Of a stretch of 47,623 bases of DNA, positions 23,764 to 23,883 are shown one piece after another. Source of the stretch: a virus (taxonomy: Duplodnaviria > Heunggongvirae > Uroviricota > Caudoviricetes); the IMG/VR virus record IMGVR_UViG_2541047816_000005, positions 1 to 47,623 of that record. One strand, 5' to 3'. The notes under the pieces were generated by a model. That model ran no database searches, was not told where the DNA came from, and saw nothing but the letters and a program-made list of their open reading frames with translations. The first letter of the stretch is position 1; the number at the start of each line of letters is the position of its first letter. The position numbers and the translations under genes are program-made.

Positions 23764-23883
23764 GTTAACTGCTGCCTGGTTAACATTTTCTGAAAAAGCC
23801 AGTTAACATTTTTTTCGCACAACAAACTGAATAATAAAGATAAAAACCGCAAAAATGCCCGGGCAGCCAGTTAACATGTTAAC
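23764..23883. repeat. cluster of five GTTAAC / GTTAACAT motifs including palindrome GTTAACATGTTAAC; candidate terminase recognition (cos) region
   Basis: GTTAAC at 23764, 23779, 23812, 23870, 23878; three share CCAGTTAACAT; lies between HNH gene and terS. Confidence 0.5.

Follow-up and report, generated by a model that had tools for sequence, protein, structure and literature searches.

The sites at which a small terminase subunit (TerS) engages the DNA to be packaged are well known as a kind of element, and a few described systems are close enough to the locus studied here to serve as references. In phage lambda, the R3, R2 and R1 elements of cosB are required for TerS binding and for the initiation of packaging (PMC6739421). 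The ends of HK97 DNA have a 10-nt 3' overhang, and its TerS site, at +15 to +29 from the cut, consists of an A-tract and one specific G (PMC11331095). G1P, the small terminase of SPP1 and SF6, makes multiple contacts flanking the cut (PMC9611059). In the phage group to which our locus belongs, the cos cut has already been reported for one member, Lys8385Vzw, whose ends were typed by PhageTerm as cos with 3' cohesive ends, with CGCCCCCCCT at the genome end (PMC7946995). In Acinetobacter phage fEg-Aba01, 10-nt 3' cohesive ends, CGCCCCCCAT, were documented by PhageTerm and by a heat/cool restriction-fragment gel assay, and were typed as HK97-type (PMC7354433). Our search of the literature found no description of TerS sites for this phage group, which is not proof that none exists. 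To our knowledge, within the cos/HNH class a TerS-DNA complex has been solved only for the HK97 protein, which is unrelated to the one described here.

The stretch of DNA that was analysed, called the window in the following, is 47,623 bp long. The region is 93-98% identical to 93 phage records. The similar records include BP-4795, 2851, YYZ-2008, 1717, many Stx1a, Stx2a and Stx2c converting phages, phi330 (genus Pankowvirus) and Lys8385Vzw. The segment from cos to terS (window 23688-23930) is found in most long-tailed Stx1, Stx2a and Stx2c converting phages and in 1277 of 5426 complete E. coli genomes, at up to 7 copies per genome. It carries no annotation among the records listed. We argue that the cluster of GTTAAC hexamers in this segment is probably a cosB-like array of GTTAACAT units, read by the N-terminal HTH domains of TerS. 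The HNH, terS and terL genes each have a Pfam match and are all on the minus strand, with a predicted intergenic cos between HNH and terS. The cluster lies between the HNH gene and terS, as the sequence-only reading had placed it (Table 1). There are two further genes in the neighbourhood. A DUF3950 gene (24324-24575) runs on the plus strand, opposite to HNH, and shares 19 bp with the HNH 5' end. Between HNH and the lysis cassette there is a gene for a lipoprotein-like protein with a TonB_C domain (24717-25058, minus strand). Both resemble cargo of the moron type, placed beside cos.

The position of the cut can be predicted from the ends of relatives. The TerS protein of Lys8385Vzw is 93.6% identical to that of the window. 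Its record starts with CTCACGCAGAGAAAAAATTCCCG and ends with GGACACCGCCCCCCCT, and the start is the homologue of window 23916. The minus strand of the window reads GGACACCGCGCCCCCT and then CTCACGCAGAGAAAAAATTCCCG across the same junction, and the homologous CGCGCCCCCT, followed directly by CTCACG, is at 23926-23911. Because the window matches both ends of the Lys8385Vzw record, the cos cut is predicted by homology to fall between 23917 and 23916 on the minus strand, with 23926-23917 as the overhang. Phage fEg-Aba01, a distant relative found via the N-terminus of terS, has a record that starts with CGCACGCACAAAAAAAATTCCC, in the same register as the predicted window cut. The record of Bcep176, with CGCACGTTCC at its end and then CTCACGCGCAG, is in that register as well. 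Two other sources were rejected as end evidence: the cohesive-end annotation of phi330, whose record starts inside terS, and the Burkholderia records of the vB_CB2a type, which start 18-20 nt inside the homologous position and have apparently been re-oriented. The core GGACACCGCxCCCCCT/CTCACGC (the slash marks the cut, with CTCACGCACAGAAAAAATTCCCC to its right) is present in most of the relatives examined and is diverged in the GC-rich ones. An HNH gene, annotated or recognisable, is found upstream of cos in Enterobacterales, in Burkholderia, and in some Pseudomonas and Acinetobacter relatives.

Counting from the cut in the direction of the genes, +1 is window 23916. The homologous cut is 34 bp from the first GTTAAC, which is on the terS side. 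With the cut placed between 23917 and 23916 by the mapped ends of relatives, the cluster would extend from +34 to +153 in the first-packaged end, ahead of terS. The terS gene starts at +230 with GTG, behind GGGAGGAGG. To the left of the cut by about 45 bp there is a run of 7-8 G followed by TA (window 23962-23968, GGGGGGG on the minus strand), which is present in nearly all relatives, including the Pseudomonas and Burkholderia prophages. It may be a left-hand cos element, either cosQ-like or a nuclease contact. In prophages of the PPompW type (L178, LC567822.1, 2463-3921), an IS110-family element, ISEc20, lies ~40-50 bp to the left of the cos cut (equivalent to window ~23965). The HNH and lysis genes are absent there, with tRNAs and the Q gene following directly, while cos and terS/terL are retained. 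Since they have cos and terS/terL without an adjacent HNH gene, these prophages are probably packaging-defective.

Table 1. Features of the cos-to-terS region and flanking genes. Distances are in packaging coordinates; L171 and L175 are relatives with diverged spacers.
Feature	Window position	Strand	Distance from cut	Remarks
Predicted 10-nt 3' cohesive end CGCGCCCCCT, cosN equivalent	23917-23926	minus		Homology to mapped ends of relatives
Conserved block CTCACGCAGAGAAAAAATTCCCGTTTCAGGGC, right of cut	23885-23916	minus	+1 to +32	Kept from Enterobacterales to Pseudomonas and Burkholderia
Perfect 18-bp palindrome CAGTTAACATGTTAACTG, sites 4 and 5	23868-23885		+34/+42	Head-to-head GTTAACAT units
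AT-rich 60-bp spacer	23808-23867		+50 to +109	Between palindrome and distal sites
Conserved block TCTTTATTATTCAGTTTGTT	23821-23840	minus	+77 to +96	Within AT-rich spacer
Site 3, GTTAACAT	23802-23809	plus	+110	Conserved in L171 and L175
Site 2, GTTAACAT	23779-23786	plus	+133	Conserved in L171 and L175
Site 1, GTTAACAT	23762-23769	minus	+148	Inverted pair with site 2, centres 15 bp apart
terS, small terminase	23124-23687	minus		Pfam PF03592 Terminase_2
terL	23127-21466	minus		Pfam TerL_ATPase and TerL_nuclease
HNH endonuclease gene	23977-24342	minus		Immediately left of cos; Pfam HNH PF01844

The clustering is not random. The window contains 15 copies of GTTAAC, five of which lie within the 120 bp from 23764 to 23883 (starts at 23764, 23779, 23802, 23870 and 23878), just as the sequence-only reading had counted them. 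It had also suggested a count elsewhere in the prophage as a check for enrichment, and the enrichment is there. The 10 copies outside the cluster are at about the level given by shuffling (8.6 +/- 2.8 for the whole window), and a Poisson estimate for at least five copies in any 120 bp, corrected for the number of window positions, is ~1e-6 to 1e-7. None of the other palindromic or rare hexamers of the whole window clusters as tightly. All five sites are covered by the 8-mer GTTAACAT, three on the plus strand (23779, 23802 and 23870) and two on the minus strand (23762-23769 and 23876-23883). Beyond the cluster the 8-mer has a single copy, at 29224, so that five of the six in the window are clustered; shuffles give 1.5 per window, and six copies were reached in 0 of 100. 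The spacings between units are 8, 68, 23 and 15 bp, which are not simple multiples of the helical turn. Some details of the earlier description need correction. It had three of the sites within CCAGTTAACAT, which holds for only two, both on the plus strand (23802 and 23870); the site at 23779 reads CTGGTTAACAT, and both minus-strand sites read GCAGTTAACAT. The palindrome that it reported is present and perfect, but the length given, 14 bp, was wrong: it is the 18-bp CAGTTAACATGTTAACTG at 23868-23885.

We then asked which of these units are kept in relatives. Using a profile of terS homologues, relatives were located in prophages of many Enterobacterales and of Pseudomonas, Burkholderia, Janthinobacterium and Acinetobacter. 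An inverted pair composed of a GTTAA-like element at +32 to +38 and TTAAC at +41 to +47 is present at 28 of the 29 loci with a placeable cut, from Enterobacterales to Pseudomonas and Burkholderia. The sole exception is an Acinetobacter MAG (L122). Most relatives hold this proximal pair alone, and in most of them it overlaps the start codon of terS. The usual form is GT(A/T)AAC-ATG-TTAAC at a fixed distance from the cut. Its ATG starts terS (MLTAQKRKFA) and in most cases lies 39 nt from the cut. In these short-form relatives, the conservation of the pair is confounded with coding and ribosome-binding constraints. In GC-rich hosts the form is GTTAA-(N4-5)-TTAAC, and terS starts M-A/V-L-T. The Leu at codon 3 is TTA in 12 of 12 GC-rich relatives (L107-L128), several of which are closely related, so these do not represent twelve independent events; in the long ORF next to terS, 4 of the 438 Leu codons are TTA. 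Because TTA is kept where TTA is rare, the TTAAC half appears to be constrained at the nucleotide level and not merely as Leu-Thr.

The lineage of the window has kept the proximal pair at +34/+42, while the Shine-Dalgarno sequence preceding it has decayed (CAGGGC vs GGAGGG). The ancestral ATG now opens an ORF of only 24 codons, and the real terS start is 190 bp further on. There the gene begins GTG CTG AAA ACG in the window and GTG CTG ACA ACG in most of the family. The relic ORF, MLTGCPGIFAVFIFIIQFVVRKKC, occupies 23803-23877 on the minus strand, opening at the ancestral terS ATG within the palindrome; with a decayed Shine-Dalgarno sequence in front, it is unlikely to be expressed. For the close family, 80 IMG/VR loci reduce to 51 unique sequences. 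The proximal pair is a perfect 18-bp palindrome and almost invariant among these 51 variants; the whole cos-to-terS spacer is nearly invariant in them too, so that the hexamers are not singled out at this depth.

They are singled out at greater distance, in two E. coli loci whose terS differs more and in which the long form is retained. L175, with 83% terS identity, has five GTTAAC and one degenerate GTTAAT, and L171, with 63% identity, has six GTTAAC, each in a spacer that has otherwise diverged. Both have an extra unit placed exactly 10 bp from its neighbour, towards terS (+143/+144). When the window, L175 and L171 are aligned, 20 of 24 hexamer columns are identical vs 73 of 154 columns in the rest of the spacer (Fisher p = 9e-4). 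By this sequence comparison, the hexamers are phylogenetic footprints. L172 (terS 67% identical) shows a symmetrical change in the distal inverted pair, whose two arms have together become ATGTTTAC and GTAAACAT. More remotely, three GTTAAA units follow one another as direct repeats in fEg-Aba01, spaced 13 and 11 bp, and a TTAAC is present at codon 3. As judged from the alignments, the family repeatedly has arrays of GTTA-type units in the stretch from the cut to terS. There is also a satellite-like element in E. coli (L173, GCA_012987925.1, and L174, GCA_048063075.1; 1100-1215) with a D5_N/AAA_25 primase, a capsid-like gene and no adjacent TerL. It encodes a TerS homologue of 162 aa (P0063) that is 45% identical. 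Its cleavage core is the same; behind it, two AAAAGTTACAC repeats at 12-bp spacing take the place of GTTAAC. This arrangement suggests that the element borrows the nuclease of a helper and keeps its own TerS specificity.

Two stretches without GTTAAC units are also conserved. The block at +1 to +32 includes an A6 tract at +12 to +17 (window 23900-23905), as well as the decayed remnant of the ancestral terS Shine-Dalgarno sequence. We infer a role for this block in cleavage, as the right half of the site, and/or in DNA shape, as in HK97; it may hold the TerS contact, wholly or in part. The other is TCTTTATTATTCAGTTTGTT in the AT-rich spacer, which is kept in relatives of 63% and 83% terS identity where its flanks have diverged, making it a candidate bend or host-factor site. 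We do not claim a site for IHF because nothing in the spacer (23808-23867) matches the consensus WATCAANNNNTTR at <=1 mismatch; the nearest candidate there, ATTCAGTTTGTTG, has 2 mismatches. A bend in the AT-rich spacer is possible, with a consensus IHF site absent.

The TerS protein is of a type suited to reading short DNA motifs. Residues 7-57 match Pfam PF03592 Terminase_2 with 33.3 bits against a cut-off of 26.1, covering profile positions 6-56 of 141. Comparison of a family profile with the PDB recovered the DNA-binding domain of SF6 G1P and related small terminases at E ~1e-3. The AF2 model, which is of a monomer only, places four helices between residues 4 and 56; the pLDDT for residues 1-50 is 88-95. 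There follow a disordered linker at 60-110 and helices at 115-145, where the pLDDT is 81-89 over residues 111-140 and drops to 70 in 141-150. With the N-terminal domain as query, Foldseek returned 4zc3 and 2cmp, structures of the SF6 G1P DNA-binding domain, with probability 1.00, TM 0.82-0.85 and 29-30% identity. The modelled N-terminus (residues 1-56) is accordingly assigned as an SF6 G1P-like HTH DNA-binding domain. The segment AGYSxKTAxxxGSxL is present family-wide in TerS, in step with the GTTAA core shared by the units. We propose TerS as the reader of the GTTAAC units.

The sequence-only reading had regarded the cluster as the expected TerS binding sites of an HNH-associated cos phage. 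That assignment, as putative sites, is supported because the position, the conservation of the units among relatives and the HTH-type TerS all fit it. It has to be weighed against other accounts of the same conservation. The most serious of these, though we think it improbable, is that TerS mainly recognises the +1 to +32 block, an A/T tract flanked by CAGA and CCC, in the manner of the HK97 site at +15 to +29. On that view the GTTAAC units would either serve only for tuning or be contacted by a different partner (TerL, the HNH protein or one from the host). The block is indeed conserved family-wide, and its tract keeps a constant distance to the cut; the tract is rich in A in enterics, in T in Pseudomonas. 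The exchange of A for T is reminiscent of HK97, where TerS binds the A-tract site at +15 to +29 with orientation irrelevant (PMC11331095). However, the HK97 protein belongs to a different family without an HTH, whereas the TerS of the window has a G1P-type HTH, the kind that reads short repeated boxes. A block adjacent to the cut is equally what TerL and HNH need for cleavage, and recognition of that block would leave the multiplication of units in several lineages unexplained. It is less probable again that only the proximal palindrome matters, and that the three distal units and the 190-bp segment are functionless leftovers of a duplicated ancestral terS start (ATGTTAAC). Each unit does hold ATG and then TTAAC, that is, the ancestral start codon and codons 2 and 3, the relic 24-codon ORF opens at the old ATG, and in most relatives the proximal pair alone suffices. 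But functionless relics would be expected to decay like their flanks. Instead, the hexamers persist where three-way identity in the spacer is down to about 47%, unit counts differ in clean steps of 10 bp, and the two arms of the distal pair in L172 changed in concert.

The remaining accounts involve no packaging function. That the units act on expression, whether as a promoter, as an operator through which terS is autoregulated, or as a hairpin in the RNA that hides the start codon, seems very unlikely to us. It would suit the short-form relatives, in which the pair straddles the terS start codon, and a weak sigma-70-like match can be built from two of the units. That match, which scores only 9/12 and is on the strand opposite to the genes, was the one hit of a promoter scan of the cos-to-terS spacer, and no terminator was found there. 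The RNA of the spacer folds no better than shuffles (z = -1.5), and a 5-bp stem of AU pairs only would be very weak. In the window, the pair is maintained as a perfect one although 190 bp separate it from the actual start of terS. A chance cluster, or an oddity of HpaI/HincII restriction sites with no role, can be given almost no weight. The hexamer is short, palindromic and AT-rich, and its surroundings in the spacer are AT-rich too, but the estimate of ~1e-6 and the failure of any of 100 shuffles to reach the GTTAACAT count speak against it, and conservation of the units in diverged relatives contradicts chance.

Recognition of the units by TerS would operate as follows. Through their HTH domains, TerS oligomers would contact both the proximal palindrome and the distal units, and the AT-rich spacer would bend or loop, either intrinsically or with a host factor. 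The nucleoprotein complex so formed would position TerL and the HNH protein for a staggered cut 34 bp away, from which packaging would proceed onwards, terS-first. In this scheme, TerS as the binder, the bending of the spacer and any role in specificity are the parts that we infer. As to how the array came about, the Stx-phage lineage of E. coli would have moved the terS start ~190 bp downstream and added extra units. A fuller version of this history can be given, although we hold it only tentatively and would sooner expect it to need revision than to stand as written. The ancestral recognition palindrome of TerS (GTAAAC-ATG-TTAAC, 39 nt from the cut) would itself contain the terS start codon, and packaging signal, translation start and perhaps an operator for autoregulation would coincide in one element. 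In the E. coli Stx-phage lineage these roles would then have been uncoupled when the start moved by 190 bp, and a lambda-like multi-site cosB built by copying the start-codon unit. If so, the stepwise origin of a cosB array is visible among living relatives, and there is an explanation for how satellites with the same core and different repeats (GTTACAC) gain packaging specificity.

If the bases of the packaging signal were known, it would be easier to predict which prophages can still be packaged, which satellites or plasmids Stx phages can mobilise, and how specificity differs among the co-resident lambdoid prophages of O157 strains. Such knowledge would also supply a defined DNA target for a G1P-type TerS in a cos/HNH system. 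An evolutionary by-product is the contrast between most relatives, where a start codon is embedded in the putative recognition palindrome, and the Stx-phage lineage, where the two are uncoupled and the array has expanded.

The closest likeness in layout is to lambda. The cosB of lambda (R3-I1-R2-R1, bound by gpNu1) is, like the array in the window, situated between the cut and the small-terminase gene in the end that is packaged first. Both consist of short repeats in mixed orientation, arranged as a proximal element, an AT-rich spacer and distal elements, and the small-terminase genes start at comparable places, nu1 at +191 and terS of the window at +230. An IHF site was reportedly demonstrated in the lambda cosB spacer (Xin and Feiss 1993, cited in PMC9611059), whereas in the window spacer no consensus IHF site was found. 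The components differ in kind. The winged HTH of gpNu1 belongs to a different family from the window TerS, and the R elements are unrelated in sequence to the GTTAAC units. Lambda also lacks an HNH partner, and its overhangs are 5' ones of 12 nt.

The gene order of HNH, cos, terS and terL is instead that of HK97, which also has an A-tract close to the cut and whose TerS site, like cosB of lambda, is on the side of the cut where the GTTAAC array lies. Direct similarity to the HK97 cos was sought and none was found, and the TerS proteins belong to different families. HK97 TerS has no HTH, threads DNA through its channel and uses a single 15-bp site, with terS at +50; its cos lacks repeats of the GTTAAC type, and the window TerS is of the Pfam Terminase_2 type. 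For the N-terminal domain of the window TerS, the closest solved structure is that of SPP1/SF6 G1P; the central and C-terminal parts of the window protein are modelled with less confidence. SPP1 and SF6 are headful (pac) packagers of Bacillus, without HNH or cohesive ends, and their boxes are unrelated to GTTAAC. The system in the window would combine a G1P-type TerS with HNH/3'-cos cleavage of the HK97 type.
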